Positions 1,403-62,771 of a DNA stretch of 64,000 nt are shown here, in pieces (the stretch's first letter is position 1; each line of letters opens with the position of its first letter). The DNA is taken from positions 118,653 through 182,652 of the forward strand of contig CBDUPN010000001.1 of assembly GCA_965369125.1 (NCBI GenBank), written 5' to 3'. Below the pieces are notes generated by a model. That model ran no database searches, was not told the origin of the DNA, and was given only the letters and a program-made list of their open reading frames with translations. A program made the translations under genes and the position numbers. Source of the DNA: an uncultured Aureibaculum sp. Its GTDB lineage: Bacteria > Bacteroidota > Bacteroidia > Flavobacteriales > Flavobacteriaceae.

Positions 1403-3460
1403 TTATATTTCAAATCTTACACCGCCAAAAACGTTAAACCCCGGGGCTGGCTCATAGAATCTGCCGCCAAAAGCATTGATTCTAACATTGTCATTGTACT
1501 TAGTGTTAAACATATTGTTTATTCCTATGAAAGGTGAAATTATAGCATGATTTGTCTTTATTTTATAACCTATATTTAAATTAACAACACTATAATTATC
1601 ATCACTTACAGAATTACTATCATTTGTATATAATTCACCTACATATCGGGACTGTAAACTCGCGGTAAGTCCCGATTTATTGAGATAATCAAAAGAAATT
1701 GTTGCTAAATGCCTTGGAATTCCGGGAAGCATATTATCGTTAAAATTTCCAGAAGAAGTCTCATAATCATCATAAATAAAATCTGAATAGGTATAACTGG
1801 CCTTCAATTTCATGTTTCTTATCAAAGCTTGAGAATAAAAGAATTCAATTCCACTCCTTTTTGTGCTGCCAGCATTTCTGAAAAACGTTCTATCGGGAAA
1901 ATCTTCTAATTCGTATGGTACTAGATCATTATCGGTTTTGATATGAAATATTGCTATTTCGGCCGACATGCTTTCATTCTTAATTTTATATCCTAATTCT
2001 ATATTGCTTGCCTTTTGGGGATTTAATGCTAAATTAAAACCACCTTCTCCGGATGGATTGGCTGAGAGTTCGCTTAATGCCGGTGTTTCAAAACTGGTTG
2101 AAAAATTCGCGAATAAATGATGTTGATGGTTAAGTGAATAATTTATACCAATACTTGGATTGAATGAATGTAAAGAAATATCATCACTACCATCACCATC
2201 GGTAAGAAATTTGTCTTTCGCTTTTAAATGGTTAAGGTCATAACGAATACCTCCGCTTAAAAGAAAATCTCCGGATGAAAAATGATCAACAATAAAAAAC
2301 CCAAGTGATGAGAATGACTCCTTCTGATTGAAAGATCTTTCTCCCTTGATCCCTTCTAAATTATTAAAGCGCAATCTATTATCCTGTTGTATCGCCAGAT
2401 CATAACCAATTTGGACTTTATTTGTGCTGTTAGCAATATGATGTCTAAATGTCAAACTACTGCCATTTCCTGCATAGTTACGCTCAAGATCAACTATTCC
2501 ACCATCTTCAAACGGCAACAACCCATAAAAATCCCTGAATGAATAAAAACTATATGAATTCAATAGTATTCGATGTATTTGATGAGTAAAATTGGCGCCA
2601 ATTTTAAATTGACGTATACTTTCTTGGGTACTATAGTCAATATTACGCTGCCTTGCCTGTCTTCTATCCTCATTTACTTCTTCGAGATTCAATCCACCAG
2701 CATCCTCTGCCAATGGGCTATCTGTATAATTCACTAATATATTTAATTCAGAAGATGGCGTAAACCGATGTTTTAATTTAAAATTAAAATTGTAATTCTC
2801 GAAACCACTTTGTATCCGATATCCGTCTGTGGTTATCCTATTCCCATGAAAAATATAATTAGTACGTTTTCCTTTTAATCCAACTGCAAATTGATATTGT
2901 TGCATATTATAAGTTCCAAAGGTAAATCCGGCTTTTATAAAATTTTCACTAAAATCGTCAATCGTACTTATGCTAATAACACCTCCGGAAGCATTGCCAT
3001 AAAGTGAAGATGAAGGTCCTCTTATAATTTCTAAACTTTTGATGATCGATAAATTTAAATTATCTATTTGACCTTGTCCATCAGGGGTTGTTTCAGGTAT
3101 GCCATCTACTAAAATTTTTATCCCTCTAATACCGAAAGCTGCTCGCGCACCAAAACCACGTATAGAAACCCTAAGGTCTTGAGAATAGTTATTTGCATTT
3201 AAAGCAAATAGCCCCGGTATGCCTGATAAATATTCATTAAATGAAAGTTGTTGATAGATATCTTGTTTTTGTTCGAATTCAATTTTTGAAATAGAAAAAG
3301 GCAGCTTTTCTATGCTTTCTGAAATGCGAGAAACCTTTAAGGTAACAGGTTCTAAGGTTATCGGGCTGAGGCTGTCTTTTTGAGCAAAAATATTATTAAT
3401 TGAACTTATTAATAAAAGGTATAAAATATTCTTAATCATAAAATGGAAGTATTCTTTCAT
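1403..3460 (-). CDS. TonB-dependent receptor, YncD/PqqU (PQQ uptake)-like
   Basis: Plug motif SIRGFGARAAFGIRGIKILVDGIPETTPDGQGQ..LEIIRGPSSSLYGNASGGVI, FETPALSEL, and C-terminal GRFYEPAPG resemble E. coli YncD/PqqU as recalled; N-terminal signal peptide. Confidence 0.75.
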   Translation of the reverse strand: MKEYFHFMIKNILYLLLISSINNIFAQKDSLSPITLEPVTLKVSRISESIEKLPFSISKIEFEQKQDIYQQLSFNEYLSGIPGLFALNANNYSQDLRVSIRGFGARAAFGIRGIKILVDGIPETTPDGQGQIDNLNLSIIKSLEIIRGPSSSLYGNASGGVISISTIDDFSENFIKAGFTFGTYNMQQYQFAVGLKGKRTNYIFHGNRITTDGYRIQSGFENYNFNFKLKHRFTPSSELNILVNYTDSPLAEDAGGLNLEEVNEDRRQARQRNIDYSTQESIRQFKIGANFTHQIHRILLNSYSFYSFRDFYGLLPFEDGGIVDLERNYAGNGSSLTFRHHIANSTNKVQIGYDLAIQQDNRLRFNNLEGIKGERSFNQKESFSSLGFFIVDHFSSGDFLLSGGIRYDLNHLKAKDKFLTDGDGSDDISLHSFNPSIGINYSLNHQHHLFANFSTSFETPALSELSANPSGEGGFNLALNPQKASNIELGYKIKNESMSAEIAIFHIKTDNDLVPYELEDFPDRTFFRNAGSTKRSGIEFFYSQALIRNMKLKASYTYSDFIYDDYETSSGNFNDNMLPGIPRHLATISFDYLNKSGLTASLQSRYVGELYTNDSNSVSDDNYSVVNLNIGYKIKTNHAIISPFIGINNMFNTKYNDNVRINAFGGRFYEPAPGFNVFGGVRFEI

Positions 3461-3549
3461 AGTGACTTAAGCGATACAATATAAAAAATTTAATCATCCC
3501 TTTGAAAGGTTGAACTGTAAAAGAATATTATTCAAATTTTAAAATTTAC

Positions 3550-3605
3550 TTCGGTAAAAAATAATACCCTTTCGGACAATAATTTCACAGTTTCGTCCTA
3601 GGACG
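3550..3605. promoter_or_regulatory. Candidate operator: three TTCG-core direct repeats at 21-bp period plus 12-bp palindrome CGTCCTAGGACG
   Basis: TTCGGT at 3550, TTCGGA at 3571, TTCGTC at 3592; perfect palindrome 3594-3605. Confidence 0.45.
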
Positions 3606-3665
3606 GTTGTTTATTAAAATTTTTCTCGATTACTTCATAAAACAATTATTAAAATCAATTAATTT

Positions 3666-5789
3666 ATGAAAACCAACTCTTATTACTATTTACTCTTGGG
3701 TCTTCTAAGTGTTTTTATGTTTAGCAATTGTACTGGCAAAGATCAAACCGCTAGTTATGACGACAAAGCAATCGCCGATGAAGAACAGGTTTCAGACTGG
3801 CTGGCTTATGGAAGAACCCATAATGAAAGACGATTTAGTCCTGCCCAAGATATTAATACCAATAATGTAGCCAGTTTAAAGGTAGACTGGTTTATGGACT
3901 TACCTTATGATGTCGGGTTGGTCTCTACCCCTTTGGTGGTTGACGGCGTAATCTATTTTACAGGAACTATGAATATTGTGAGGGCTGTAAATGCTGTTAC
4001 TGGTGAATTATTATGGACATTTGACCCCGAAGTAGCCAAGGAAGTTCAAGGTAAAAAGAAAATTGGCTGGTTGCACAATCGTGGAATATCATTTTATGAA
4101 GGAAAAATCTTTGCAGCGACCTGGGATGGCCGACTTATTGCTCTTGATGCAAAAACCGGTAACAAAATATGGTCGGTAAGAACATTTGACATGGAAAGGT
4201 CCCTTTATATAACAGGAGCTCCAAAAGCTTTTAAGGGAAAGGTCTTAATTGGAAACGGAGGTACTGAAAATGGTCCAACAAGAGGATGGGTTACAGCCTA
4301 TGATGCCGATACTGGAAAAGAAGCCTGGAAATTTTATATAGTTCCCGGTAACCCGGCGGACGGATTTGAGAATGAGGCAATGGAAATGGCAGCCAAAACA
4401 TGGACGGGAGAATGGTGGAAACATGGTGGTGGTGGTAATACCTGGCATGGCCTTACCTATGATGCTGAACTAGATGTACTATATATTGGCACCGGAAATG
4501 GATCTCCCTGGAATCGAAAAATAAGAAGTCCCGGTGGAGGGGATAATCTTTTCCTATGTTCAATCGTTGCGCTTAAACCAGATACCGGAGAATACCTTTG
4601 GCATTATCAGACAACCCCGGGGGAAAGTTGGGATTATAATTCTAATATGGATATTGTCTTAACCGATTTAAACATAGACGGCAAAAATATAAAAGCGCTT
4701 TTACATGCACCAAAAAATGGATTCTTTTATGTTATAGACCGCGAAACAGGTAAACTGGTTTCTGCCGAGCCTTTTGCCGAAACCTCATGGGCTTCACATA
4801 TCGATATGGCAACCGGTAGGCCTGTAGAAATTGAAGGAGCAAGATATGAGAATGAACCTGCCTATATAACCCCTGGACCTTGGGGTGCCCATAGTTGGCA
4901 TGCGATGTCTTTTAACCCAAATACCGGATTGGCCTATATTCCGGTAATTCATCAAGCTTTTAACTATTCAGACGAAGGTATTGATCTTGCCAGTTGGCGA
5001 TCTGTCGAATTCGATGGAGGAACAGGTGTTGGTCTTTTAGGCCCTGACAAAGAACCTAGAGAATACCCGGCATCATTATTAGCATGGGACCCTGTGAAGC
5101 AAGAAAAGGTATGGTCTATACCTCAAAACCATTCTCATAATGCCGGCACTTTAACAACAGCGGGCAATCTATTATTCCAAGGAAGACCTGATGGTAAATT
5201 CCTGGCCTATAATGCCACTTCTGGGGAAATCCTTTGGACCTTTGATGTAGGGCTGGGAATTGCAGCTCCTCCTATAACTTATAAGATAGATGGTAAACAG
5301 TATATCTCCCTTTTGGTAGGATGGGGTGGCGGTTATGCCGGCCTCGGTTCCAATAAGGCAGCTGAGCTTGGATGGGCATATGGAGCACAAACGAGAAGGT
5401 TAATTACCTTTTCTTTAGAAGGAACAGCAGATATGCCAAAATTAGCACCACGTTTGATACCTATACCTATAGATTACCCTAATTTTACCATTGACGATGA
5501 CTTAGCATCCGAAGGTGCCAATGTGTATGGCCGATGCAGTGCCTGCCATGGTGGAGGTTTAATTAGTGGAGGAATGGCCCCAGACCTTAGAGCCTCTCCA
5601 ATTCCAATGGATAAGCAGTTGTTTACAGATGTAGTCAAGAATGGTGCAAGGGTGGCAATGGGTATGCCTTCACATCCCGATCTTAATGATGAAAATTTAG
5701 AGGCCCTGCGCCATTATATCCGCCGAACTTCGAGATCTGCTTTACAAAATGACGATAAACAACAAAATAAAAAGTATGATGCAAATTAA
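3666..5789 (+). CDS. PQQ-dependent quinohemoprotein dehydrogenase (type II ADH family) with C-terminal cytochrome c; predicted lipoprotein
   Basis: PQQ beta-propeller Trp-docking repeats, GTENG, GTGNGSPW, WDY, HAPKNGFFY, GWGG; heme-c motif CSACH at 5535-5549 with downstream GMP Met ligand; lipobox MFSN-C22. Confidence 0.9.
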   Translation: MKTNSYYYLLLGLLSVFMFSNCTGKDQTASYDDKAIADEEQVSDWLAYGRTHNERRFSPAQDINTNNVASLKVDWFMDLPYDVGLVSTPLVVDGVIYFTGTMNIVRAVNAVTGELLWTFDPEVAKEVQGKKKIGWLHNRGISFYEGKIFAATWDGRLIALDAKTGNKIWSVRTFDMERSLYITGAPKAFKGKVLIGNGGTENGPTRGWVTAYDADTGKEAWKFYIVPGNPADGFENEAMEMAAKTWTGEWWKHGGGGNTWHGLTYDAELDVLYIGTGNGSPWNRKIRSPGGGDNLFLCSIVALKPDTGEYLWHYQTTPGESWDYNSNMDIVLTDLNIDGKNIKALLHAPKNGFFYVIDRETGKLVSAEPFAETSWASHIDMATGRPVEIEGARYENEPAYITPGPWGAHSWHAMSFNPNTGLAYIPVIHQAFNYSDEGIDLASWRSVEFDGGTGVGLLGPDKEPREYPASLLAWDPVKQEKVWSIPQNHSHNAGTLTTAGNLLFQGRPDGKFLAYNATSGEILWTFDVGLGIAAPPITYKIDGKQYISLLVGWGGGYAGLGSNKAAELGWAYGAQTRRLITFSLEGTADMPKLAPRLIPIPIDYPNFTIDDDLASEGANVYGRCSACHGGGLISGGMAPDLRASPIPMDKQLFTDVVKNGARVAMGMPSHPDLNDENLEALRHYIRRTSRSALQNDDKQQNKKYDAN

Positions 5790-5854: not shown

Positions 5855-5885
5855 AAAGCCCTTTAAAAATAAAGGGCTTTTTTTT
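5855..5885. terminator. Bidirectional intrinsic terminator between convergent dehydrogenase and amidinotransferase genes
   Basis: AAAGCCCTTT-aaaaat-AAAGGGCTTT followed by T run. Confidence 0.75.
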
Positions 5886-6881: not shown

Positions 6882-8168
6882 TTATCTTTTATCTATTGTT
6901 TTGAATGGCCTTTGGGTCTCACCTATATAAATTTGACGTGGACGACCAATAGGTTCTTTATTCATCCTCATTTCCTTCCATTGTGCAATCCAACCGGGAA
7001 GTCTTCCCAATGCAAACATAACTGTAAACATTTCGGTAGGAAATCCTAAAGCCTTATAAATAATTCCAGAATAAAAATCGACATTTGGATAAAGTTTGCG
7101 ATCAACAAAATACTTTTCTTCCAATGCTTGTTTCTCAAGACCTTTGGCTATGGTAAGTACAGGATCATCTATTCCCAGATCATCTAATAATTCGTCGGCA
7201 GATTTTTTAATGATCTTTGCTCTAGGATCGAAATTCTTATAAACTCTATGCCCAAATCCCATTAAACGGAATGGGTCATTTTTGTCCTTGGCCTTTTCCA
7301 TATATTTCGCCGTATCTCCATCATCAGCCATTATCGCCTCTAACATTTCAACAACCGCTTGATTAGCGCCACCATGTAATGGTCCCCATAGTGCAGATAT
7401 GCCCGAAGATAAGGAGGCAAATAATCCGGCATGTGATGAACCTACAATCCTAACAGTACTGGTCGAACAATTTTGTTCATGGTCAGCATGAAGAATTAAT
7501 AATTTATCCAAGGCATCAACCACAACTGGATTCATTATATATTTTTCATTAGGCTTTTTAAACATCATCTTTAAGATATTCTCAACATAGCCTAAAGAAC
7601 TATCGCTATACCTTAATGGCAGACCTTGATATTTTCGCATTGTCCAAGCCACCAACACAGGAAATTTTCCCATGATCTTCACAATGGCTTTGTACATAGC
7701 CTCTTCTGAATCAACATTTACGGAGGATGGATTAAAAGAAGTTAATGCGCTTGTTAAGGAAGCAAGTACGCCCATTGGGTGTGCTGCCTTCGGAAATGCG
7801 TCTAATATCTTTTTGAGTTCTTCATCAACTATAGACTGTTTTTTAATATCATTTTCAAATTTTTCTAAAGTCTCAGCATCAGGTAATTCACCAAAAATTA
7901 GTAAGTAAGCAACTTCCAAAAAATCGGCTTTTTCGGCCAATTCTTCAATGGAATAGCCCCTGTAACGTAGGATACCTTTCTCTCCATCTAAAAAAGTAAT
8001 GGCACTCTCACATGATCCTGTATTTTTATATCCGGGGTCAAGGGTTATTATTCCACCTGTATCACTCCTTAATGATTTTATATCTATACCTATTTCACTT
8101 TCAGTACCTTTAACTATTGGCAATTCATAGGAAGATCCATTAACTATAAGTGTTGCTTTATCTGACAT
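6882..8168 (-). CDS. gltA: Citrate synthase, bacterial type II (GltA)
   Basis: DPGYKNT, LHADHEQNCST, GPLHGGAN, GFGHRVYKNFDPR, YPNVDFYSG; probable start MSDKATL at 8168 rather than 8222. Confidence 0.93.
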   Translation of the reverse strand: MSDKATLIVNGSSYELPIVKGTESEIGIDIKSLRSDTGGIITLDPGYKNTGSCESAITFLDGEKGILRYRGYSIEELAEKADFLEVAYLLIFGELPDAETLEKFENDIKKQSIVDEELKKILDAFPKAAHPMGVLASLTSALTSFNPSSVNVDSEEAMYKAIVKIMGKFPVLVAWTMRKYQGLPLRYSDSSLGYVENILKMMFKKPNEKYIMNPVVVDALDKLLILHADHEQNCSTSTVRIVGSSHAGLFASLSSGISALWGPLHGGANQAVVEMLEAIMADDGDTAKYMEKAKDKNDPFRLMGFGHRVYKNFDPRAKIIKKSADELLDDLGIDDPVLTIAKGLEKQALEEKYFVDRKLYPNVDFYSGIIYKALGFPTEMFTVMFALGRLPGWIAQWKEMRMNKEPIGRPRQIYIGETQRPFKTIDKR

Positions 8169-8258
8169 TTTATAATTGAATTTAATTATTATTTGAAAGT
8201 ACGCTAAATTACAAAATTTCAATTAGAAAATAATTATCAAAAGATTTCTATTAAAATG

Positions 8259-8321: not shown

Positions 8322-9653
8322 TTATAAAGAAGAAACGCTTTCTTTTTTATTTTTTTTAGCCATGGCTTCTAACATATCTGTGGTTATGGATTTAGGTCTT
8401 TCTAAAGGATAGCCCAAGGCGCGATCCCATACAATATTTGACAACACACCAATAGATCTGCCAATGGCAAATAGCACTGTATAGAAATCATATTGTGTAA
8501 CACCATAATGCCATTGAAGAACCCCTGATTGGGCATCTACATTGGGCCACGGATTCTTAGCCTTACCCTGTTCCCTTAAAATATCTGGCACAACTTTATA
8601 CAATGCATCTACATATTTAAACAATTCATCATCCTTCATATGCTTGAGGCAGAACTCTCTTTGTACGGTATATCTCGGATCTGTTTTTCTCAAAACCGCA
8701 TGGCCATAACCAGGTATAACCTGACCGTTATTCAAGGTCTCCCAAACGTAATTTTTCATTTCTTCTTCTGTTGGGATCTTACCACCCATTTGTTCTCTAA
8801 GGCCTTGTAACCAGCGAAGCACTTCTTGATTTGCCAAACCGTGCAAAGGACCTGCCAAACCATTAGTCATTGCAGAAATTGCGTAATACACATCAGATAA
8901 TGAACTAGCCACTAAATGACCTGTATGGGCACTAACATTACCACTTTCATGGTCGGCATGAATAATGAAATACATACGGGCAACATCATCATATGGTTTA
9001 TCTTTTCCCATCATATAGGCAAAATTGGCACCGAGATCTAAAGAAGCGTCTGGATAACGGTGACCTTTTTCGGGATGATAAAGTTTATTGTAAATATAGG
9101 CCCCTATTAAAGGCATTTTTGCTAATAAATTCGTTGCGTCCTCATAGGTAGCATCCCAGTAGTCCATTTTATTCAAGCCACGTTCATACATCAAATTAAA
9201 ATGGGATTCTCGTTGTAAGCTCATTACGGCAGCCGACAAAATAGCCATAGGATGACTTTCACTGGGAAAAGAATCAATAACATCCCAAACATAGCGGGGT
9301 ATCACTCTCCTATTCCTTAAATTTGTCATCAGCTCCTCAACTTCCTTTTCTGTGGGCATTTCGCCTGTTAATAATAAATGATACAATCCTTCAACATAAG
9401 GCATTTCAGCATCCTTGGCTTTAGGTAATTTTTCCAAAACTTCCGGTAAGGTGAACCCCCTATATCGTATTCCTTCATTAGGGTCTAAATAAGAAATGTC
9501 TGTAACTAAACTTTTAATACCCCTCATACCACCTATTATTTGGGAAACAGTTACTTTATCAATAACTACATCGCCATACTCTTTCAAAAGTTTTTCAGTG
9601 CGTGGTCTATGTTCTAGAATTTTTTCGTATAACTTATCTTTTAACGTGATCAT
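8322..9653 (-). CDS. Citrate synthase, eukaryotic/mitochondrial type
   Basis: GGMRGIK, HADHESGNVSAHT, GLAGPLHGLANQEV, PGYGHAVLRKTDPRY, NPWPNVDA, ALGYPLERPKS are signatures of the mitochondrial-type enzyme. Confidence 0.88.
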   Translation of the reverse strand: MITLKDKLYEKILEHRPRTEKLLKEYGDVVIDKVTVSQIIGGMRGIKSLVTDISYLDPNEGIRYRGFTLPEVLEKLPKAKDAEMPYVEGLYHLLLTGEMPTEKEVEELMTNLRNRRVIPRYVWDVIDSFPSESHPMAILSAAVMSLQRESHFNLMYERGLNKMDYWDATYEDATNLLAKMPLIGAYIYNKLYHPEKGHRYPDASLDLGANFAYMMGKDKPYDDVARMYFIIHADHESGNVSAHTGHLVASSLSDVYYAISAMTNGLAGPLHGLANQEVLRWLQGLREQMGGKIPTEEEMKNYVWETLNNGQVIPGYGHAVLRKTDPRYTVQREFCLKHMKDDELFKYVDALYKVVPDILREQGKAKNPWPNVDAQSGVLQWHYGVTQYDFYTVLFAIGRSIGVLSNIVWDRALGYPLERPKSITTDMLEAMAKKNKKESVSSL

Positions 9654-33209: not shown

Positions 33210-36200
33210 ATGAAAACAAAGTTACATGGATTTTTAACGCTATTATTGGCGTTTTTGGTGCAATTAACCTTTGCACAAGAAAAAACTATCACGGGTACGG
33301 TTACTGATGAATCAGGACCATTACCAGGTGTGAGTATATTGATTAAAGGTACCACAACCGGTGCCGAAACCGATTTTGACGGTAATTACACCATTCAAGC
33401 AAATACAGGTGATGTTCTTGTATTTAGTTTTATTGGAATGTCAACTCAAGAAAGAGTGGTTGGTGCTGCTAACACAATTAATGTTGTATTGGTTGCCGAT
33501 AATATTCTTGAAGAGGTTGTAGTTACAGGGTATGCTTCTGTAAGAAAAACGGAGGTAACCGGTTCTACGGTGCAACTTAAATCAGAAGAATTTGATATGG
33601 TGCCTGTGGCGTCAGTAGATCAAGCACTTCAAGGAAAAGTTGCCGGATTACAATTTAGTGGTAATTCTGGTACACCTGGTTCTACAACTAATATTAGAAT
33701 TAGGGGTAGAAGTTCTATTACAGCAGGTAATGAACCTTTATATGTGATTGACGGTGTTCCTATGGTTAACACAAATACTTCTGCAACTACATCAGGTTCA
33801 TCATTATCTCCACTAGCCAGTATAAACAGTAATAATATAGAAAGTATAACTGTTTTAAAGGATGCATCTGCAACTGCTGCTTATGGTGCCAGAGGTGCCA
33901 ACGGGGTAATTGTTATTACCACCAAAAGTGGACGTTCAGGAAAAACGACTTTTAACTTTAGTTCATCTTATGGTTTTGCCAATGATGCTACTAAGGGGCC
34001 AGATCCTTTAACAGGTGCCGAAAGGGAGGAACTTTTTTATGAAGCCCTTTTTAATACTTATGGAGCAGATTTTGGATTTACAATAGATGGAGCACAGGAC
34101 TTTTATGAAAGTTATCCGGGTTCTTTTGGTACAGATTATACTACTTGGAATGCTGCTGGTAGGCCAGAAGCAAATTGGAAAAAAGTGATTACCAATAATG
34201 ATGCACCAATAATGGATTATAACTTTTCTGCCAGTGGTGGAACTGAAGATTATAATTTTTATGCGTCTTTAGGTTATTTTGATCAAGAAGCTACCGTTAT
34301 AGGTAGTAATTTCGACAGAATTACAGGTCAACTTAATTTTAGTAAAAACCTGTCGGATAAGTTAAAATTCAGTACGATTAATTCTGCTGCACATTCCTTT
34401 CAAGATGGTTTGTTGGAAACTAGTGCCTATTTTTCTTCACCCCGTTCGGTAGTATATTTTATGCCTCCGATCGATCAGCCATATACTGATGATGGTGAAA
34501 TTAATGTGCTTGATCCTGGTACATCATTACCAAATCCATTATGGATAGCACAGGAAGATATAGATGATTCTAAATTAACTAGAATTTTATCAAATCAATC
34601 ACTCGACTGGGAAACTCCGATTAAAAACCTAAGTCTTAGTAGTAAAATAACTATAGATTATCAAGTTTATAATTACAAGCGTTATAGAAATAGAATAAGA
34701 GGTGATGGTGCTAGTTCTGATGGTTATGGATGGCAAGCGCACAGTAACAGAGCAAATTATGTGTTTCAAAACGCTATAGATTATACCTGGGAATTAAATG
34801 ACGATCATACTTTCGATTTTAAATTATTACAGGAATATCAAAAAAATAGATTTTACTATTTAGAGGCCGATGGTGACTCTTTTCCAACTGATGGTTTAAC
34901 AAACCTCGCTTCAGCGGGTAACCCAACTACAGCAAATTCGTTCTATACTGACTGGTCTATTGCCTCTTATTTGGGTATCATGCATTATACGGCATTTGAC
35001 GCCAGATATGTATTCGATGCGACCTTTAGAAGAGAAGGTAGTTCTCGTTTTGCTCCTGATGAAAGATGGGGTAATTTTTGGTCTGTAGGTGCAGCATGGA
35101 ATATGCACAAAGAAAGCTTCTTAGAAAATAGTGACTTCTTAAATAATTTAAAATTAAGAGGTTCTTATGGTGTTACTGGTAATGCTTCAATAAATTTAAA
35201 TCAATATCAGGCTTTGTTTGCATTTGATTCGAATTATGCCGGTGAAGGAGCTGCATACCCAAGTACTTTTGGTAATGATAAATTATCGTGGGAAACATCC
35301 TATACTTTAGACTTAGGTCTTGACTTTGGATTATTCAATAACAGGGTTAACGGTTCTCTTGCTTATTATCGAAGAGAATCTAAAGACCTGCTTCTTGATG
35401 TACCACTATCTTTAACAACTGGTTTTACTTCTCAAACAAGAAATATTGGTAGAATGGAGAATAAAGGTTTGGAAGCTGAGTTAAACTTTGATATCATTAA
35501 AACAGAAGATTTTAACTTGTCTCTTGGAGGTAATGTAGCTACGAATGATAATGAAGTGTTAGAATTGGCTAAAGATGCGAATGGTGAAGAGATCAATATT
35601 TCTGGCGGAACTCAACGAGTAGAAACCGGTCATCCTGTTTATGGATGGTATTTGAGAGAGTGGGCAGGTGTCGATCCTGATAATGGAGACGAATTATATT
35701 ACACCGAAGGTGCAGGTAGTGAAACTACTAACAATTGGAATGACGCAGAACAAGTTTGGATGGGCGGCAGTGCCTTACCAACGATAACTGCAGGATTGAA
35801 TTTCCATGTTGATTTTAAAGGGTTCTTTTTAGATGCCAATGCATATTATGCAGGAGGCCATAAAGTTTATGAAGACTGGCATCGTTATACCGCCGGTAGA
35901 GACTTGTTTTCTCTGTTATATTACCAAGGTACAGATGCCATGTTAGACAGATGGCAACAACCTGGTGACGTTGCAAGATTTGGTAGAATGCAGGCAACAA
36001 CATTCCCATGGCAACTTAATTCGAAATTTTTATACGATGGTGATTATATGAGAATCAAAAATCTTACTTTTGGTTATGACTTTAATTATAATTTCCTTGA
36101 AACCATAAAAGTAGACGGATTTAGAGTATTCGTTCGCGGTACAAATCTATTCACATGGGTAAAAGACGATCGTTTGGAATATGACCCTGAAGTTGACACA

Positions 36201-36269
36201 AGTGGATTTACATCCTTAACTACTCCTCCTGTTAAGTCGATCATTTTAGGAATTAATATTAAATTTTAA
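33210..36269 (+). CDS. SusC/RagA-family TonB-linked outer membrane transporter
   Basis: CarboxypepD-reg-like N-domain, EEVVVTGY TonB box, VLKDASATAAYGARGANGVIVITTK plug motif. Confidence 0.93.
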   Translation: MKTKLHGFLTLLLAFLVQLTFAQEKTITGTVTDESGPLPGVSILIKGTTTGAETDFDGNYTIQANTGDVLVFSFIGMSTQERVVGAANTINVVLVADNILEEVVVTGYASVRKTEVTGSTVQLKSEEFDMVPVASVDQALQGKVAGLQFSGNSGTPGSTTNIRIRGRSSITAGNEPLYVIDGVPMVNTNTSATTSGSSLSPLASINSNNIESITVLKDASATAAYGARGANGVIVITTKSGRSGKTTFNFSSSYGFANDATKGPDPLTGAEREELFYEALFNTYGADFGFTIDGAQDFYESYPGSFGTDYTTWNAAGRPEANWKKVITNNDAPIMDYNFSASGGTEDYNFYASLGYFDQEATVIGSNFDRITGQLNFSKNLSDKLKFSTINSAAHSFQDGLLETSAYFSSPRSVVYFMPPIDQPYTDDGEINVLDPGTSLPNPLWIAQEDIDDSKLTRILSNQSLDWETPIKNLSLSSKITIDYQVYNYKRYRNRIRGDGASSDGYGWQAHSNRANYVFQNAIDYTWELNDDHTFDFKLLQEYQKNRFYYLEADGDSFPTDGLTNLASAGNPTTANSFYTDWSIASYLGIMHYTAFDARYVFDATFRREGSSRFAPDERWGNFWSVGAAWNMHKESFLENSDFLNNLKLRGSYGVTGNASINLNQYQALFAFDSNYAGEGAAYPSTFGNDKLSWETSYTLDLGLDFGLFNNRVNGSLAYYRRESKDLLLDVPLSLTTGFTSQTRNIGRMENKGLEAELNFDIIKTEDFNLSLGGNVATNDNEVLELAKDANGEEINISGGTQRVETGHPVYGWYLREWAGVDPDNGDELYYTEGAGSETTNNWNDAEQVWMGGSALPTITAGLNFHVDFKGFFLDANAYYAGGHKVYEDWHRYTAGRDLFSLLYYQGTDAMLDRWQQPGDVARFGRMQATTFPWQLNSKFLYDGDYMRIKNLTFGYDFNYNFLETIKVDGFRVFVRGTNLFTWVKDDRLEYDPEVDTSGFTSLTTPPVKSIILGINIKF

Positions 36270-36275
36270 GAAATC

Positions 36276-37640
36276 ATGAAAAAAATAAATATCTTATATA
36301 CATTATTATTTATATTTTTTATTTCATTTACTGCATGTTCAACCGATGATTTAGAACCTAGCTTGGAACAAAATCAGTCTGTTGAGGGTAGTATCGTAGA
36401 TGTAAATAATTTATATAGTGTTCTAAAAGGAGCATACAGCCAAATGACAGTTTCCGGTTATTATGGCAGAGATCTAATTGCAACAAATGAAGTTCGTACC
36501 GACAATTGTTTTTCGAATGGTAATTCCGGACGATTTACTACACAGGCTTCATTTACCTATACCGAGAATACCGGATATTTTTGGGACGAAGCTTATAGCA
36601 CTATTGCTGATGTAAATATTATCATAAATACTGATGTAACTACCCTAACGGGAGATCAAGAATATGGGAAACATTTACAAGGTCAGGCTTATGCTATTAG
36701 AGCATTGGTACATTTTGATCTTTTAAAGCAATATGGCCAGGTAAATACCGGTGGAACCCTAGGTGTACCTTATGTTACAGAATTTAAAGGTGAGGATCTG
36801 TTTCCAGCGAGAAATACGGTTGCAGAAGTGAAAACCTTTATAATGGATGACCTGACAAATGCTTTTAACCTTATGAGCGATAGTTTTTTCGATGCTAGTA
36901 AAGAGTTTATGTCAAAATATACTGCCAAAGCTTTAGAATCCAGAGTAGCTATCTATTTTGGTGATTGGCCAACGGCAAGAACTGCTGCAGAAGATGTTAT
37001 AAATTCAGGGCTATATTCTATTATTAGTGCCGATAATTTTGTTGGCAGTTGGGCAGGAAAAGGAAATTCGAATTCAATTTTCGAACTTGCCTATAGCGCT
37101 ACCGATAACCAGGGAATTAATGGCCTTGCATATATATATAGACAAGGTGCGACAGGAAGTTATGGTGATGTGCAAGTTCTAGCAAATGTAGAAGACCTTT
37201 ACGAAGATGGTGATGTTAGAGCAGGAATTTTAGGATATGAAGGTGATAAATTGAGAAATTTAGGCAAATATCCTGATCTTCAAGGTTATGATAATGTACC
37301 TATTATTAGATATGAGGAGGTTATTTTAAACTATGCTGAAGCTTTGTTTGAAACAAGTGGGGACGCATTAACGCAATTAAACTTAATCACATCAAATAGA
37401 GGAGCTACTGCTTATACATCTGTAACAAAAGAGGATATTCTTAACGAAAGACGAAAAGAACTAATGTTTGAAGGTTTCCGTTTTGATGATCTAATGAGAA
37501 CAGGTAGCGATATCGAAAAGATCGATTTTAACCAAAACTTTGCAAGCACCATTCCTTATGGCGATTTTAGATTAGCCTGGGCAATTCCTAGGGCCGAAAT
37601 TGACGCCAATTCGAATATGGTTCAAAACGATGGTTATTAA
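36276..37640 (+). CDS. RagB/SusD-family nutrient-binding lipoprotein
   Basis: Lipobox FTA-C, RALVHFDLL, IRYEEVILNYAEA, ERRKELMFEG.RFDDL, QNDGY. Confidence 0.9.
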   Translation: MKKINILYTLLFIFFISFTACSTDDLEPSLEQNQSVEGSIVDVNNLYSVLKGAYSQMTVSGYYGRDLIATNEVRTDNCFSNGNSGRFTTQASFTYTENTGYFWDEAYSTIADVNIIINTDVTTLTGDQEYGKHLQGQAYAIRALVHFDLLKQYGQVNTGGTLGVPYVTEFKGEDLFPARNTVAEVKTFIMDDLTNAFNLMSDSFFDASKEFMSKYTAKALESRVAIYFGDWPTARTAAEDVINSGLYSIISADNFVGSWAGKGNSNSIFELAYSATDNQGINGLAYIYRQGATGSYGDVQVLANVEDLYEDGDVRAGILGYEGDKLRNLGKYPDLQGYDNVPIIRYEEVILNYAEALFETSGDALTQLNLITSNRGATAYTSVTKEDILNERRKELMFEGFRFDDLMRTGSDIEKIDFNQNFASTIPYGDFRLAWAIPRAEIDANSNMVQNDGY

Positions 37641-37657
37641 TAATATTAATTTTTAAT

Positions 37658-37687
37658 AAAAAACCACCTTAAAAAAGGTGGTTTTTT
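37658..37687 (+). terminator. Intrinsic terminator after the first SusC/D pair
   Basis: AAAAAACCACCTT-aaaa-AAGGTGGTTTTTT. Confidence 0.8.
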
Positions 37688-38104
37688 ATTTTATATACTT
37701 TTAAAAATCGGAATGCCAGTTGCGAATAGTTCTTGCTTTAGATTTATATGGTAAAGTTAATCTTTATATTAGATGGTGATTATGGTACAGGCATAGTTTT
37801 ACCAATCAATTAAAATAAAAATACTTGATATAATTAAATAAACAAGGATTTAACCGCTGCCAAGAAATATAAAATTGTTTTTTTACTACTCATACTGTAC
37901 CTTCCTCAAATAAAAGGTTTTTAAAAAATTTATATTTTTATTTAGAATTAACGCAACTAAAATTATATCAATGCATCTAAGTTTAAATATACCATCATCT
38001 TCTTAAGATTTATTTAACAATTTTATAAATATTTTATGTTAAAAAATAGGATTTTTAACTAATTATTAAGACTTTTGGCTCAAATTAATTCAAATAATTA
38101 TACA

Positions 38105-41100
38105 ATGAAAACAAAGTTTAGTGGAATTTTAACGCTATTACTGGCGTTTATGGTGCAAATAACATTTGCACAGGAAAAAACTATCACTGGTACTGTGACT
38201 GATGAATCAGGGCCATTGCCAGGCGTTAGTATAATAATTAAAGGAACTACATCTGGTACAGAAACCGACTTTGATGGGAAATATACCCTTCAAGCTAGTG
38301 TTGGTGATGTACTTGTATACAGTTTTGTAGGTATGTCTAGTCAAGAGGCTACGGTTGGCGTTTCAAATACTATCAATATAGTGTTGAAAGCCGATAACGT
38401 TCTTGAAGAGGTTGTAGTTACTGCTGTAGGTATTTCCAGAAGAGAAAAAGAACTTGGATACAATGTTCAAAGTGTGAGTGCTGAAGAAATAAGCGCAAAA
38501 CCAAATGCCGATATTGTTAACTCATTGGCAGGAGCAACATCTGGTGTGCAAGTTGTTAGTTCATCTGGTGAAGCCGGGGCTTCTACATTTATTACTATTA
38601 GGGGTTCATCTTCTATTACTGGTAATAACCAACCTTTATTTGTGGTGAACGGTATGCCTATCATCTCAGGTGGTGGATCAAGTGATGTTGGAGGAACAAA
38701 TACATCCAGCAGATCTATTGACATCAACCCTGATGATATCGAATCGCTTTCAGTACTAAAGGGTGGTGCTGCAACAGCATTATATGGTGTAAGAGCGGCA
38801 AACGGTGCGGTTATTATTACAACTAAAAGTGGTAAGAATCTAACAGCAAGAAAAATTGAATTCCATAGTTCTTATGCAATTGATATGGTATCTCAATTAC
38901 CGGAAAGACAAAAGAAATATGCACAAGGAAGTGGCGGTGTCTGGTCAAGTGGAAATGCGGCTTCTTGGGGGCCTGAAATCTCTAGCTTAGAATATGACGG
39001 AGATACTTCTTATAAATGGGATCCATTCGGACGTTTAGTTCCAGCCGGAACAGGAAATGGGAATCCTGCGAGATATTACGATCCTTACGAATTCTTCCAA
39101 CATGGAGCACAGAGCAATAATCGCTTTAGTATAGCGAATGGAAGTGATCAAGGAAATTACTTTTTCTCACTTTCTAATCTAGAACAAGATGGTATCATAC
39201 CAAATAACCAATATGGTAGAACAACGGTTCGTTTAAATGCTTCAACAAAATTATCAGAGAATGCTACTTTTGGAGCTGATATGTCTTATACCAATTCAAG
39301 AGCCGTTCAAATTCAAAAAGGTTCGAATGTTTCTGGTATTATGCTAGGTCTATTAAGAACAGCTACTACTTTTGATAACAGTGCTGGTTATGAATTTGCA
39401 GACGGTACTCAAAGAAACTACCGAAATGGTGGTGGTTATGATAACCCTTATTGGACAGCAAATAATATCAAATTTGATGAAGATATAAACCGTTTTGTAG
39501 GTGGCGTGAATTTGAATATGAAATTTACAGATTGGTTTAGTTTAGGTTATAATGCCGGTATCGACTGGTATAACAGAAGATATGTTGATCAATTTAAAAT
39601 TGGATCAAGAGGTAATCCAACTGGTTACCTAGGTGAATATTCTAATTTCTCCAGTGTTGTGAATTCCGATTTATTATTGAATTTCCAAACTGACATTACT
39701 GATGACTTTAATGCAAAATTAACATTAGGTAATAACTTTTATTCTCAATATAATAAATGGTTATTTGGTGATGCCACAGGTTTATCAATTCCAGATTTCT
39801 ATCAATTGAATAATACGAGTAATAATACTACTGCAACGAATGTCTATGGTCGTTATAAAACAATGGCTGTATTTGCAGATCTTCAATTGTCATTTATGGA
39901 TATGATCTTCTTAGGTGTAACCGGAAGAAATGACTGGTCAACTACGATGCCAGAACAAAATCGTTCTGCATTCTATCCTTCTGCAAGTTTAGGTTTTGTA
40001 TTTTCACAACTTGAAGGCATGAAAGGTGGCTTTTTATCATTTGGTAAATTAAGAGCCTCTGCTGCAAGAACTGCAAACATTGCTCCTGCATTTAATACTG
40101 ACAATTATTTCTTTGCTGCCGGAACTGCCGATGGTTGGACAAATGGGGTGAATTTCCCTTTCCAAGGTCAAACAGGATTCCAGGTAGGAAATCAGTTAGG
40201 AAATCCAGATCTTAAACACGAAACTCAAGATTCTTGGGAAGTTGGTGCAGATCTAAGATTTTTCAAAAATAGATTAGGTGTTGATTTTACCTATTTTAAC
40301 AATGTAAATAGCGACCTTTTAATGGCTGTGCCAATTGCAGCTTCTTCTGGGTTTACATCTTCATTCTTAAATGCAGCCTCCATGGAGTCTAAGGGTATTG
40401 AAGTTAGCTTAAATGCTACTCCTTTAAAATCTGAAGATTTCCAGTGGGATTTTGTGGTTAACTTTACAAAATTCACAAACATCGTAACAGAATTAGCTGA
40501 AGGTGTTGATAATATATTCTTAGGTGGATTTACAACGCCTCAAGTGCGAGCAGTTGTTGGTGAAGAATACAGAAGTATCTTCGGTGAAGACTGGTACAGA
40601 GACGGTGATGGAAACATATTGATCAATGACGATCCTACAGATTCATATAGAGATGGATATCCTATGACCAATACTGTTCAAGGGTTGGTTCCAATAGGTA
40701 ACTTTAATCCTGATTGGACTGCCAATATGACCAATAATATTAAATACAAAGACCTGTCATTATCATTCTTAATTGATGTGAAATCTGGTGGAGTTATGTA
40801 TAATGGTACTGCTTTTGCGATGAATTTCTTTGGTGTACACGGTCGTACAGTAAACAGAGAAGTGTATTATAATACTGATGGTAGTATTAATTTCGATCTT
40901 ACCCCAGCTGAAAACCTTAGAGTATTTGATGGCGTATATGGGCATGTAGTTAATGGTGTAGGTGTTTCAAGTGGAGAACAAAATGTAACTCCAGTAGTTG
41001 AAGACGAAGCTTGGTTTACAGGACAAGGTAGTAACTTTGGTGGCGGACCATCATCTGCCGCTATGGAGCCTGCTGATTGGGTTCGTTTGAGAGATATTAC

Positions 41101-41305
41101 ATTGGCATATGATTTACCAAAAATTGCTGACTTCATTAAAGAAGGTCAAATATATTTCACAGGTAGAAACTTATGGATAAGTACTCCTTATACCGGCATT
41201 GACCCTGAAACCAGTTTACTTGGAGCAGATAATGCACAAGGGATGGATTATTTTAACAGCCCGGGTACAAAAACCATATTGATGGGTATTAAATTGACAT
41301 TTTAA
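38105..41305 (+). CDS. SusC/RagA-family TonB-linked outer membrane transporter
   Basis: Probable start MKTKF at 38105; DINPDDIESLSVLKGGAATALYG plug motif; C-terminal Phe. Confidence 0.93.
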   Translation: MKTKFSGILTLLLAFMVQITFAQEKTITGTVTDESGPLPGVSIIIKGTTSGTETDFDGKYTLQASVGDVLVYSFVGMSSQEATVGVSNTINIVLKADNVLEEVVVTAVGISRREKELGYNVQSVSAEEISAKPNADIVNSLAGATSGVQVVSSSGEAGASTFITIRGSSSITGNNQPLFVVNGMPIISGGGSSDVGGTNTSSRSIDINPDDIESLSVLKGGAATALYGVRAANGAVIITTKSGKNLTARKIEFHSSYAIDMVSQLPERQKKYAQGSGGVWSSGNAASWGPEISSLEYDGDTSYKWDPFGRLVPAGTGNGNPARYYDPYEFFQHGAQSNNRFSIANGSDQGNYFFSLSNLEQDGIIPNNQYGRTTVRLNASTKLSENATFGADMSYTNSRAVQIQKGSNVSGIMLGLLRTATTFDNSAGYEFADGTQRNYRNGGGYDNPYWTANNIKFDEDINRFVGGVNLNMKFTDWFSLGYNAGIDWYNRRYVDQFKIGSRGNPTGYLGEYSNFSSVVNSDLLLNFQTDITDDFNAKLTLGNNFYSQYNKWLFGDATGLSIPDFYQLNNTSNNTTATNVYGRYKTMAVFADLQLSFMDMIFLGVTGRNDWSTTMPEQNRSAFYPSASLGFVFSQLEGMKGGFLSFGKLRASAARTANIAPAFNTDNYFFAAGTADGWTNGVNFPFQGQTGFQVGNQLGNPDLKHETQDSWEVGADLRFFKNRLGVDFTYFNNVNSDLLMAVPIAASSGFTSSFLNAASMESKGIEVSLNATPLKSEDFQWDFVVNFTKFTNIVTELAEGVDNIFLGGFTTPQVRAVVGEEYRSIFGEDWYRDGDGNILINDDPTDSYRDGYPMTNTVQGLVPIGNFNPDWTANMTNNIKYKDLSLSFLIDVKSGGVMYNGTAFAMNFFGVHGRTVNREVYYNTDGSINFDLTPAENLRVFDGVYGHVVNGVGVSSGEQNVTPVVEDEAWFTGQGSNFGGGPSSAAMEPADWVRLRDITLAYDLPKIADFIKEGQIYFTGRNLWISTPYTGIDPETSLLGADNAQGMDYFNSPGTKTILMGIKLTF

Positions 41306-41322
41306 AAAGTAAAAATTAAATC

Positions 41323-42708
41323 ATGAAAAATATCAAAAAATTTAATATTAAAAACTTAGTGTTGGCATTTTCGCTCATACTAGTTTCGGCATCGTGTGAC
41401 GGATGGATCGATTCGGATTTAAACGTTGAACCGGATTCACCATCAGATGTGCCAATGAGTTTATTATTACCAGCCATCCAACAGGATATGGGCTATAACT
41501 TACTAGGTAATAATAGTGTTAGAACTAATAATATTTGGATGCAACAATTTGATGGAACAGACCGTCAGTCGTTTACAGAAGCCAGGTATCAACATACCCC
41601 TGCCGATGTGAATAACCTTTGGGGCTCCATTTATGCATCAGAACTGATCAATTCTAAAATTATTTTAGATAAAGCCACAGTTGAGGGTTCAGAATCTGAT
41701 AATTTTGCTGGTGTTGCCCAGGTCTTAATAGCTACAACCTTAGGAATTACAACAGATCTATTTGGTGATATTCCTTATTCTGAAGCACTAGAAGGATCTA
41801 ATAATGTATTAAAACCTGTGTACGATTCGCAAGAGTCTATATATAATAGCATATTTGGTCTGTTAGACGAGGCTGTTGTTAATTTAAACAGTTCGAGAAA
41901 TGCTGTTCCTGTTAGTGGTGATGTTACTTATGGTGGCAATATTAGTAAATGGATAAAAGCTGCCAATTCTATTAAGGCAAGACATGCGTTACAATTGTCT
42001 AACAGAAATGGTAATGCAGCTTATACGCAAGCGTTAGCAGCTGTTGCCGGTGGGTTTACTTCAAATGCAGATGACTTTTATGTGCCTTTTGAAGATGCAA
42101 ACCGTAATCCTATCTTCCAATTTATGGAGCAAAGAACAGATATACGTATGTCATCAACCTTTGTAAATGCGTTGATAGCAGCGGATGATCCAAGGCTTCC
42201 ATTTTATGTAGCCGAAGATGGTGATGGTAATTACACTGGTAGTGATCCTGGAACGCAAAATAACAATGCCTCTAAGCCAGGAGATTATGTTGCTGCATTT
42301 GATGCTCCTACCTATTTAATGACCTATTCGGAATTGAAATTTATCGAAGCAGAAGCTTTATTGATGACTACAGGTGCGGCATCCGCTCAGGCTGCCTATG
42401 AAGCTGCTGTTGCGGCCTCTGTATTAAGGGTAACCGGAGATGCGAATACTGCATGGTTAGATGCTAACATTAATGGCGTTGCTGTTACCATGGCAACTTT
42501 AATGGAGCAAAAATATATTGATAGCTTCGGTACAAATCAAGCTTATGCAGACTGGAGAAGAACAGGCATGCCTACTATAAATGTTGTACCTGGTGCTGTA
42601 ATACCAAATATCCCAACAAGATTTCCTTATCCACAACAGGAGTTAGATTATAATGGGGATAATGTACCATCGTTTACTATCTCAGATAAACTTTGGTGGG
42701 ATAATTAA
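41323..42708 (+). CDS. SusD/RagB-family lipoprotein (SusD-like_2 type)
   Basis: Lipobox SAS-C, TDLFGDIPYSEAL, PVYDSQESIY, AYADWRRTGMP, LWWD end. Confidence 0.9.
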   Translation: MKNIKKFNIKNLVLAFSLILVSASCDGWIDSDLNVEPDSPSDVPMSLLLPAIQQDMGYNLLGNNSVRTNNIWMQQFDGTDRQSFTEARYQHTPADVNNLWGSIYASELINSKIILDKATVEGSESDNFAGVAQVLIATTLGITTDLFGDIPYSEALEGSNNVLKPVYDSQESIYNSIFGLLDEAVVNLNSSRNAVPVSGDVTYGGNISKWIKAANSIKARHALQLSNRNGNAAYTQALAAVAGGFTSNADDFYVPFEDANRNPIFQFMEQRTDIRMSSTFVNALIAADDPRLPFYVAEDGDGNYTGSDPGTQNNNASKPGDYVAAFDAPTYLMTYSELKFIEAEALLMTTGAASAQAAYEAAVAASVLRVTGDANTAWLDANINGVAVTMATLMEQKYIDSFGTNQAYADWRRTGMPTINVVPGAVIPNIPTRFPYPQQELDYNGDNVPSFTISDKLWWDN

Positions 42709-58025: not shown

Positions 58026-58813
58026 AAATTAAAGATCAATTACATAGAGAAATCATCTTGGAAAAAATCCCTCTGCGGATTATTTCACTGGTTCCCTCAC
58101 ATACCGAATCATTATTTGATCTTGGATTAGGAGACAACATAGTTGGCATTACTAAATTTTGTGTGCATCCAAAACACCTCAGTTCAGAAAAAACGATTGT
58201 TGGTGGTACTAAAAAAGTAAATTACAAGAAAATTAAAGATTTACAAGCAGATCTTATCATTGCCAATAAAGAAGAAAATACTGAAAACATGGTGTATGAA
58301 CTCGAAGATATAGCACCTACTTATGTTTCTAACGTATATTCTATTGGTGATACATTGAAGTTTATTCTAGATATGGGTAAGCTATGTGATAAATTAGAAA
58401 ATGCTAAAAAATTAGTTGAAGAAATTGAAAATTCTGTAAAAAAATTTAAAAATAATATAGAGGAATACCCATCCAGAAAAGTCGTTTATTTTGTTTGGAC
58501 AAAACCATGGATGGTTGTAGGTGGAAATAATTATATCAACGAAATACTTGAGTTAAATAAGTTCGAAAATATATTCGATAGTGCCGACAGGTATCCGGAA
58601 ATATATGTCGAATATTTATCCGACCTAAATCCTGAACTCATTTTACTACCTTCAGAGCCGTTTCCTTTTAAAAAGTCGCATATTAAAGAATTAAAAGAAC
58701 ACATAGACGCGAAGTTTCTTCTCGTAGACGGCGAGATGTTTAGCTGGCATGGATCTCGATTATTAAAAGCCCTCCCATACTTTGAATCTTTACATAAGAT
58801 ACTCAATAATTAA
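58022..58813 (+). CDS. Helical-backbone metal receptor / BtuF-like (cobalamin or iron-siderophore binding) protein without signal peptide
   Basis: RIISLVPSHTE, GITKFCVHP, GGTK, NKEEN, SEPFPF, DGEMFSWHG. Confidence 0.75.
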   Translation: MKIKDQLHREIILEKIPLRIISLVPSHTESLFDLGLGDNIVGITKFCVHPKHLSSEKTIVGGTKKVNYKKIKDLQADLIIANKEENTENMVYELEDIAPTYVSNVYSIGDTLKFILDMGKLCDKLENAKKLVEEIENSVKKFKNNIEEYPSRKVVYFVWTKPWMVVGGNNYINEILELNKFENIFDSADRYPEIYVEYLSDLNPELILLPSEPFPFKKSHIKELKEHIDAKFLLVDGEMFSWHGSRLLKALPYFESLHKILNN

Positions 58814-62300: not shown

Positions 62301-62771
62301 ATTCAAGGCGCTTTTATCATCGAAGAATTGACCGATCTCGTAGAACAAGCGGTGTACGCTGAATTTGACAGGATCACAGAACGTGGCGGCGTTTTAGGAG
62401 CTATGGAAACCATGTATCAACGATCTAAAATACAGGAGGAAAGTTTATATTATGAAACATTGAAACACAACGGAGAGTTTCCAATTGTTGGAGTTAACAC
62501 CTTTTTAAGCAGTAAAGGTTCTCCAACCATTATACCTAAAGAAGTTATCCGCGCTACAGAAAAGGAAAAGAAATATCAGATTAAGGTTGTGGAAAATTTA
62601 AATAAAAGGAATGCCAACAAGGTAGCTGAACAAATTACACTTCTGCAGCAAAAGGCCATTCACAATGAAAATATTTTTGAACAATTGATGGAAGCAACTA
62701 AGGTATGTTCTTTAGGTCAAATTACACATGCACTCTTCGAAGTTGGCGGGCAGTATAGAAGGAACATGTAG
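59337..62771 (+). CDS. icmF: Fused B12-dependent isobutyryl-CoA mutase / MeaB-like GTPase (IcmF)
   Basis: N-terminal B12 domain DGHDAAIN, P-loop [13 protein letters not shown], mutase domain ARMFAGEG (Phe specificity residue), LHTNAYDEA. Confidence 0.88.

Follow-up and report, generated by a model that had tools for sequence, protein, structure and literature searches.

The closest described counterparts of the locus analysed here are PqqU, a TonB-dependent receptor (TBDR) for pyrroloquinoline quinone (PQQ) that is also known as YncD in Escherichia coli, and the type II quinohemoprotein alcohol dehydrogenases (ADHs). PqqU homologues are defined by the PQQ contacts Tyr99 (Phe or Trp allowed), Arg304 and Arg365; Lys274 and Arg536 are also important, with lower conservation (Munder et al. 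2025, PMC12124388). Flavobacteriaceae are named 142 times in the PqqU data table (data S2) of that study, including Dokdonia, Muricauda and MS024-2A; one flavobacterial PqqU was modelled with PQQ, and the PQQ biosynthesis pathway is missing from all 206 Bacteroidota that encode PqqU (PMC12124388). The central idea of PqqU-based scavenging, Flavobacteriaceae included, has been public since 2025; the first-pass annotation of the present locus overrated the novelty of PQQ scavenging by a flavobacterium and is anticipated on this point. Munder et al. discussed the synteny of pqqU only with pqq biosynthesis genes (PMC12124388). The locus described here differs in that a pqqU-like gene is divergent from the gene for a PQQ enzyme. 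It lies in a window of 64,000 nucleotides (positions 118,653 to 182,652 of contig CBDUPN010000001.1, assembly GCA_965369125.1) from an uncultured Aureibaculum sp.; all coordinates below are positions in this window unless another locus is named.

Two other described systems are comparable. In Pseudomonas aeruginosa, PqqU (PA2289) serves the periplasmic PQQ dehydrogenases Gcd (PA2290) and ExaA (10.64898/2026.04.27.721047). The locus numbering suggests that importer and PQQ dehydrogenase genes are neighbours there too, which the paper does not state. P. aeruginosa differs from the present case in that it also synthesises PQQ, and in that PqqU is partnered there by a glucose dehydrogenase of the membrane instead of a quinohemoprotein ADH. 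Lanthanide TonB-dependent transporters (TBDTs; LutH-like) belong to the same broad subfamily as the receptor in the window, are likewise linked to a dehydrogenase (XoxF/ExaF-type) and supply something that its active site needs. According to a 2026 preprint, they are often annotated as YncD and have PqqU as top PDB match, and the PQQ-binding residues are missing (10.64898/2026.07.10.737718).

The receptor, of 685 aa, is encoded on the minus strand at 1403..3460, and the PQQ/heme-c dehydrogenase, of 707 aa, on the plus strand at 3666..5789. The two genes are arranged head-to-head, and their starts are separated by an AT-rich spacer of 205 bp (3461..3665); these coordinates and the domain content agree exactly with what had been annotated. 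Chance matches are not a concern, because both open reading frames (ORFs) are long and intact and the E-values range from 1e-46 to 1e-203. Near-intact copies of the region are found in marine-sediment metagenomes, and marine Flavobacteriaceae are where homologues occur, which identifies the source as an uncultured flavobacterium of marine sediment.

The receptor belongs, on sequence and fold comparison, to the PqqU family, and more precisely to the subtype with Glu at position 274. It has a signal peptide ending in ..NIFA|QK, a Pfam Plug domain (residues 51-161) and a TonB_dep_Rec_b-barrel domain (217-649), giving an architecture of plug plus 22-strand barrel. The best of 18,950 NCBIfam models is NF041535, 'TonB-dependent receptor PqqU', at 387 bits over the full length; the runner-up family, generic siderophore receptors, reaches 168 bits, with FhuA, BtuB, FecA and others below 95. 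Among PDB entries, E. coli YncD/PqqU 6V81 (340 bits) and the PqqU-PQQ complex 9C4O (338 bits) lead with an E-value of 1e-100; CntO/FoxA come next at 67 bits and 1e-17. An AlphaFold2 model built with 20 homologues has barrel strands throughout (pLDDT 72.8, pTM 0.76). Foldseek places 9C4O and 6V81 at the top for this model, with TM 0.82-0.86 and 30-31% identity; FoxA and FhuA follow at TM of at most 0.74 and 16-18% identity, and over FoxA, FhuA and CntO together identity is 13-20%.

Alignment with E. coli PqqU is end-to-end. In hhalign, residues 47-684 align with residues 39-697 of the E. coli protein at a probability of 100% (633 columns, 32% identity). The four motifs that were originally read as PqqU-like are all present and align with the E. 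coli motifs: VDGIPETTPDGQGQ (residues 118-131) with GIPATMPDGQGQ, YGNASGGV (154-161) with an identical YGNASGGV, FETPALSEL (457-465) with FETPTINEL, and RFYEPAPG (667-674) with RYYEPSPG. The suggestion that the receptor groups with PqqU/YncD, as opposed to the receptors for iron or B12, is borne out by the NCBIfam, PDB and fold matches alike.

The PQQ-contacting residues are also conserved, as had been supposed. A profile alignment of the flavobacterial family with E. coli PqqU maps Gln84 to Q94 (3179-3181), Tyr99 to F109 (3134-3136), Lys274 to E280 (2621-2623), Arg304 to R309 (2534-2536), Arg365 to R362 (2375-2377) and Arg536 to R524 (1889-1891), all on the minus strand. Tyr99 is thus kept as Phe, the Gln and the three Arg are kept, and Lys274 is replaced by Glu. 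The signature of Munder et al. is satisfied by F109, R309 and R362. Across 86 Bacteroidota relatives, F109, E280, R309 and R362 are invariant; R524 is kept in 82/87 sequences compared, E. coli PqqU among them. The non-critical contacts Gln308, Gln310, Asn477 and Tyr481 show no conservation. Glu at position 274 is a common natural variant, found in a 'considerable fraction' of homologues; a metal was modelled between this Glu and PQQ, and metal co-binding was speculated upon (PMC12124388). When the PqqU alignment of Munder et al. was searched for the motifs, two more distant sequences with PETTPDG were among the matches listed, both with a 'QRDF' context of Arg304.

The dehydrogenase has, by its domains and residues, the architecture of a type II quinohemoprotein and falls in a large uncharacterised clade. 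Pfam identifies a PQQ beta-propeller followed by Cytochrome_CBB3 (residues 615-685), and TIGR03075 (8-bladed propeller, methanol/ethanol family) matches at 563 bits, above its cutoff of 480. The best PDB matches are the type II enzymes 1KV9 (Pseudomonas putida HK5 ADH IIB, 679 bits), 1YIQ (ADH IIG, 591) and 1KB0 (Comamonas testosteroni quinohemoprotein ethanol dehydrogenase, qhEDH, 573); the type III ADH subunit 8GY2 ranks after them. Like 1KV9, 1YIQ and 1KB0, the protein combines propeller and C-terminal cytochrome c in one polypeptide and shares their Ca2+, catalytic and heme residues. The Ca2+ ligands and catalytic base E201, N278 and D323 correspond to E173, N250 and D295 of 1KV9, and W260 is the Trp that stacks on PQQ. 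The heme site C624-S-A-C-H628 (5535-5549, plus strand) aligns with the heme domain of 1KV9, and M667 aligns with the axial Met region of that domain.

The enzyme departs from the type II ADHs in three respects. They have a disulfide ring formed by vicinal cysteines, and this ring is absent here: I133-G134 aligns with C105-C106 of 1KV9 with no nearby gaps, and I133-G134-W135 (4062-4070, plus strand) stands in place of the Cys-Cys that is present in 1KB0, 1YIQ, 1KV9 and 8GY2. The catalytic Asp is followed by D323-Y-N325 (4632-4640, plus strand), so that Asn stands where lanthanide-type enzymes have Asp. The signal sequence resembles that of a lipoprotein. The initial assignment to type II thus holds for the propeller, the Ca2+ and catalytic residues and the heme-c domain but not for the Cys-Cys ring, which is described as essential for electron transfer in ExaA in a statement of PMC12997753 that cites Mennenga 2009.

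The first two departures recur in the clade. Cys-Cys is missing in 84/84 related ADH loci listed (49-97% identity), which have x-[GMSA]-[WF] instead; 79 of the 84 have D-[YF]-N after the catalytic Asp; and E201, N278, D323, W260, CxxCH and the Met are conserved over all 84. The clade extends over several phyla, with members in Flavobacteriaceae, Cyclobacteriaceae, Saprospiraceae, Balneolaceae and one verrucomicrobial metagenome-assembled genome (MAG). Database annotation of its members is generic only, and no characterised member, nor any Cys-less or flavobacterial quinohemoprotein, was found in the searchable literature.

The type II enzymes of Pseudomonas and Comamonas are soluble. The dehydrogenase in the window is probably lipid-anchored, judging by an N-terminus that ends in a lipobox-like ..FSNC22 (3729-3731, plus strand); N-terminal alignment reveals lipobox-like ..[ST]C signals in Bacteroidota homologues. 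In several homologues the lipobox Cys is followed by a K-(D/E)(D/E)-like stretch (CVKKEE, CSTKEE, CKKDDP), and the CTGKDQ of the window protein is a partial match. Such stretches resemble the surface-export signal of Bacteroidetes lipoproteins. Surface exposure of the dehydrogenase, if true, would alter the rationale for PQQ import.

The same head-to-head pair is present in five related loci (L161, L164, L162, L168 and L169), which fall in two genus-level groups; identities range over 76-97% for the ADH, 62-90% for the TBDR and 73-96% for the neighbouring arginine deiminase (ADI)-like gene. L161 and L164 (ADH 95-97%, TBDR 85-90%) repeat the window order coaD-ctlX-TBDR<>ADH-ADIlike-citrate synthase. 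L162 (ADH 84%, TBDR 67%) retains the pair, as do L168 and L169 (ADH 76%, TBDR 64%) on the same backbone; the ADI-like gene puts these last two nearer Aureibaculum. ADH relatives with 75-77% identity are located elsewhere without a TBDR in L170 and L171.

This distribution looks as if the pair is ancestral to the two genus-level flavobacterial groups and was lost in some members; it would then be dispensable, not mobile and not universal. Insertion of the ADH beside a resident TBDR was the first idea and was revised once L168 and L169 showed the pair in the second group; ancestral presence with losses is preferred as more parsimonious because of these two loci, and gain of the ADH by recombination at the TBDR site is the less parsimonious alternative. 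ADH divergence parallels that of the ADI-like neighbour, consistent with vertical descent. Recent horizontal transfer was considered on account of the GC content of the ADH gene (0.426, window 0.344) and rejected. Its GC3 of 0.319 is just 1.3 standard deviations over the window mean, and the excess falls mainly in the first two codon positions (0.48), so that it is attributable to amino-acid composition and is no sign of recent transfer.

PqqU-like genes adjoin PQQ dehydrogenase genes in two further architectures. In L163 the arrangement is tandem (ADH->TBDR) in an unrelated context. In the Saprospiraceae MAG locus L027 (1692-10345), of which L017 is a partial copy, five co-directional genes encode an XoxF-like ADH (with Cys-Cys and D-Y-D), a MoxJ-like periplasmic protein of 256 aa, a second TBDR of 766 aa, a PqqU-like TBDR (701 aa, 358 bits to NF041535) and a major facilitator superfamily (MFS) transporter. 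This cluster is a candidate for a combined metal-plus-PQQ supply to the XoxF-like enzyme.

Several other neighbours of pqqU-like genes were observed. An MFS transporter without NCBIfam match adjoins the PqqU-like gene in Aureibaculum locus L002 (5675-6868), in L017 (5677-6849) and in L027 (9164-10345), with 67% identity between the Aureibaculum and Saprospiraceae orders. In L162 the TBDR is separated from a conserved 232-aa neighbour by a small Xre-type helix-turn-helix gene of 68 aa and a gene of 179 aa that overlaps it (1374-2109); L166 lacks both, which looks like a minor accessory insertion at this site. In E. coli K-12 MG1655 (L167, 1964-5369), pqqU (yncD) is divergent from yncE, annotated as 'PQQ-like domain-containing protein', which is a superficially similar head-to-head arrangement.

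Since the two genes start divergently, both promoters must sit in the 205-bp spacer. The spacer aligns over its full length with those of L161 and L164 and in part with that of L162. The only stretch conserved in the distant L162 is a block at 3569..3604 (plus strand, CTTTCGGACAATAATTTCACAGTTTCGTCCTAGGAC), which contains the palindrome CGTCCTAGGACG and, at a distance of about 21 bp from each other, the direct repeats TTTCGGAC and TTTCGTCC. L161, L162 and L164 have the core of the block, TTTCGGACAAT, between their two genes; it was not found in L163, L165 or L166, nor upstream of 80 other ADH loci listed. The block is a possible operator. A TTCG[GT][AC]C repeat, considered as a regulatory motif common to ADH genes generally, is restricted to the close lineage, and a sigma-70 promoter scan gave matches that are uninformative for Bacteroidota promoters. 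Downstream of the dehydrogenase gene, a strong hairpin with a T-run after it (5855..5880, plus strand; 11-bp stem, AAAGCCCTTT..AAAGGGCTTT) is the likely terminator between this gene and the ADI-like gene, which converge.

The reading that we favour, with a probability of about 0.68 for the whole chain, is PqqU-type import of PQQ supplying the quinohemoprotein ADH of a scavenging flavobacterium. The receptor would capture environmental PQQ at the cell surface, in free form or possibly complexed with a metal, and carry it into the periplasm with TonB as the source of power. There the apo-dehydrogenase, Sec-exported, matured with heme c and probably lipid-anchored, would become active with imported PQQ and Ca2+. 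It would oxidise some alcohol or aldehyde, and its electrons would pass from the fused heme c to a c-type cytochrome or terminal oxidase of the respiratory chain. The importer would provide cofactor for this dehydrogenase and for any other quinoproteins of the genome. Direct support comes from the family assignments, the conserved ligand-contact and catalytic residues and the conservation of the pair in one clade. The host is most likely unable to make PQQ, which would make it, like E. coli, a non-producer that encodes a PQQ enzyme. A Pfam scan that covered the 60 non-overlapping ORFs of 90 aa or more confirms the earlier statement that pqq biosynthesis genes are absent from the 64 kb: no ORF has a domain of the PqqB, PqqC, PqqD or PqqE type.

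A number of observations weigh against this reading. The absence of pqq genes is observed for the 64-kb window; for the whole genome it is presumed, because 0/206 PqqU-encoding Bacteroidota have the pathway (PMC12124388). At 387 bits the receptor falls below the equivalog cutoff of NF041535, 1200 bits; this is near the maximum for a 676-position model and would admit only near-identical (enterobacterial-type) sequences. Confidence in the AlphaFold2 model is low in the plug region, F109 included. The substitution K274E impaired E. coli PqqU in mutagenesis (PMC12124388), and Glu is the residue found here. L165 and L166 share the backbone and have the TBDR straight after the ADI-like gene, with no ADH; the TBDR of L166 is 94% identical to that of the ADH-bearing L162. 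In Aureibaculum L002 the TBDR is at the same site and an MFS transporter fills the ADH slot. No RNA runs holding the ADH gene were found when sought. Linkage is also rare on a wider scale. A receptor-alignment scan of GTDB species representatives listed 80 Bacteroidota loci (44-73% identity) and an ADH-alignment scan of metagenomes listed 80 loci (49-76% identity), both being samples and not censuses. A PQQ-ADH-family gene lies within 7 kb in 1/80 of the PqqU-like loci listed (L027), and a TBDR lies within 5 kb in 0/80 of the ADH-clade loci listed. Clustering of neighbours over the same 80 + 80 loci found no conserved neighbour for either gene; as for a partner that might serve as a substrate clue, SufB, TauE, pirin, a short-chain dehydrogenase/reductase and aldehyde dehydrogenase each occur at few loci. 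At this scale TBDR-ADH linkage is about at chance level. The proposal of a self-contained, general two-gene unit, which rare co-occurrence was to count against, does not survive these figures at the level of adjacency. Adjacency is conserved within one flavobacterial clade and recurs in the two further architectures, but the genes are unlinked in 79/80 and 80/80 loci listed.

These figures can be explained if the two genes are neighbours by history: PqqU would be a housekeeping importer fixed at the site and the ADH the occupant of a variable slot, neither co-regulated nor interdependent. The ADH-less sites of L165, L166 and L002, the low linkage and the terminator hairpin 3' of the ADH fit this view, as does the conserved intergenic block, which accompanies ADH-bearing loci only. 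We regard it as a real possibility, if somewhat short of even odds. Against it, the pair has been kept while TBDR identity falls to 62-67% over two genus-level groups, and two further independent architectures place a PqqU-like gene beside a PQQ dehydrogenase. In addition, the need of a PQQ enzyme for PQQ supply is independent of gene co-regulation. Synthesis of PQQ from genes elsewhere in the genome, with PqqU recapturing leaked cofactor as in Pseudomonas, is very improbable. The view of the genome here is 64 kb, the PQQ pathway is encoded by 23% of the genomes that have PqqU (PMC12124388) and P. aeruginosa has both (10.64898/2026.04.27.721047); the count of zero producers in 206 Bacteroidota and the lack of pqq genes in the window speak the other way.

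The cargo of the receptor can also be questioned. That siderophores, heme or B12 are what it imports, as in ordinary receptors of these kinds, and that its likeness to PqqU is superficial, is scarcely credible. JGI annotates homologues as 'iron complex outermembrane receptor protein' and the receptor has weak matches to siderophore, heme and B12 models, but these reach at most 168 bits (PqqU 387), and FoxA, FhuA and CntO at most 67 (PqqU 340); the lower identity and TM of non-PqqU receptors and the conserved PQQ-contact signature point the same way. It is unlikely that the cargo is not free PQQ but a metal, or PQQ in complex with one (Ca2+ or lanthanide), the receptor being either a misread lanthanide-type TBDT or a Glu274-variant co-transporter. 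The YncD annotation and PqqU match of known lanthanide TBDTs would allow such a misreading; E280 in place of Lys274, invariant in the 86 relatives and corresponding to the Glu with a modelled metal, is suggestive; and in L027/L017 a PqqU-like gene is clustered with a lanthanide-type (D-Y-D) ADH. However, the lanthanide TBDTs do not have the PQQ-binding residues, whereas F109, R309, R362 and R524 are present and invariant or nearly so in this family. Furthermore, the neighbouring ADH has Asn (D323-Y-N325) and not the lanthanide-coordinating Asp, and the separate second TBDR of L027 could handle metal uptake. Co-transport of PQQ and metal would refine PqqU-type supply of the ADH, not contradict it. 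A bolder variant, which we think rather improbable, is that Glu274 PqqU and the Cys-less, Asn-bearing lipoprotein ADH form a distinct Bacteroidota PQQ economy, in which PQQ would enter as a metal chelate and pass to a membrane-tethered dehydrogenase, with W135 in place of the disulfide ring deemed necessary for electron transfer from PQQH2 to heme. If true, the ADH clade would work by a new mechanism, and PQQ import would involve a co-substrate that is undemonstrated for any PqqU.

The remainder of the window contains no second PQQ enzyme among its 60 ORFs. Other genes include coaD, ctlX, the amidinotransferase of ADI/DDAH-like type next to the ADH, two citrate synthases, enolase, carA, an S10-spc-alpha ribosomal block, two SusC/SusD pairs, an IcmF-like mutase and housekeeping genes. 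The tandem citrate synthase genes (6882-8222 and 8322-9653) are of differing types, one bacterial hexameric (NF004126, 604 bits) and one eukaryote-like citrate (Si)-synthase (PRK09569, 685 bits); L165 and L166 have two citrate synthase genes and L168 has one. Two successive SusC/SusD-like pairs (1019 + 454 aa and 1066 + 461 aa) at 33210-42708 resemble a polysaccharide utilization locus and are followed by a 308-aa ORF without Pfam match; no recognisable glycoside hydrolase is found within the 64 kb. At 58289-58813, a 174-aa ORF matches Peripla_BP_2 in the C-terminal part of the profile only (77-211 of 235) and is perhaps a truncated gene or a mis-called start. The IcmF-like fusion (59337-62771, 1144 aa) joins a B12-binding domain, a MeaB GTPase and a methylmalonyl-CoA mutase; members of this family are directly upstream of a PqqU-like gene in 5 other flavobacterial loci, e.g. 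in Winogradskyella (L008, 3394-6810).

What the locus adds to PqqU biology is new but modest: a clade-specific physical linkage of pqqU with a quinohemoprotein ADH gene, the placement of this ADH in a widespread Cys-less clade that is uncharacterised, and the occasional clustering of PqqU-like genes with PQQ enzymes in three architectures. It is of value as an example and for its enzyme variant; the system as such is not new. If the favoured reading is true, the locus would be a clear genomic example of cofactor cross-feeding, with a high-affinity importer beside a PQQ-consuming enzyme. It is also a convenient natural test case, both for the Glu274 variant of PqqU, which is dominant in Bacteroidota, and for a large clade of quinohemoproteins without the disulfide ring deemed important for electron transfer.

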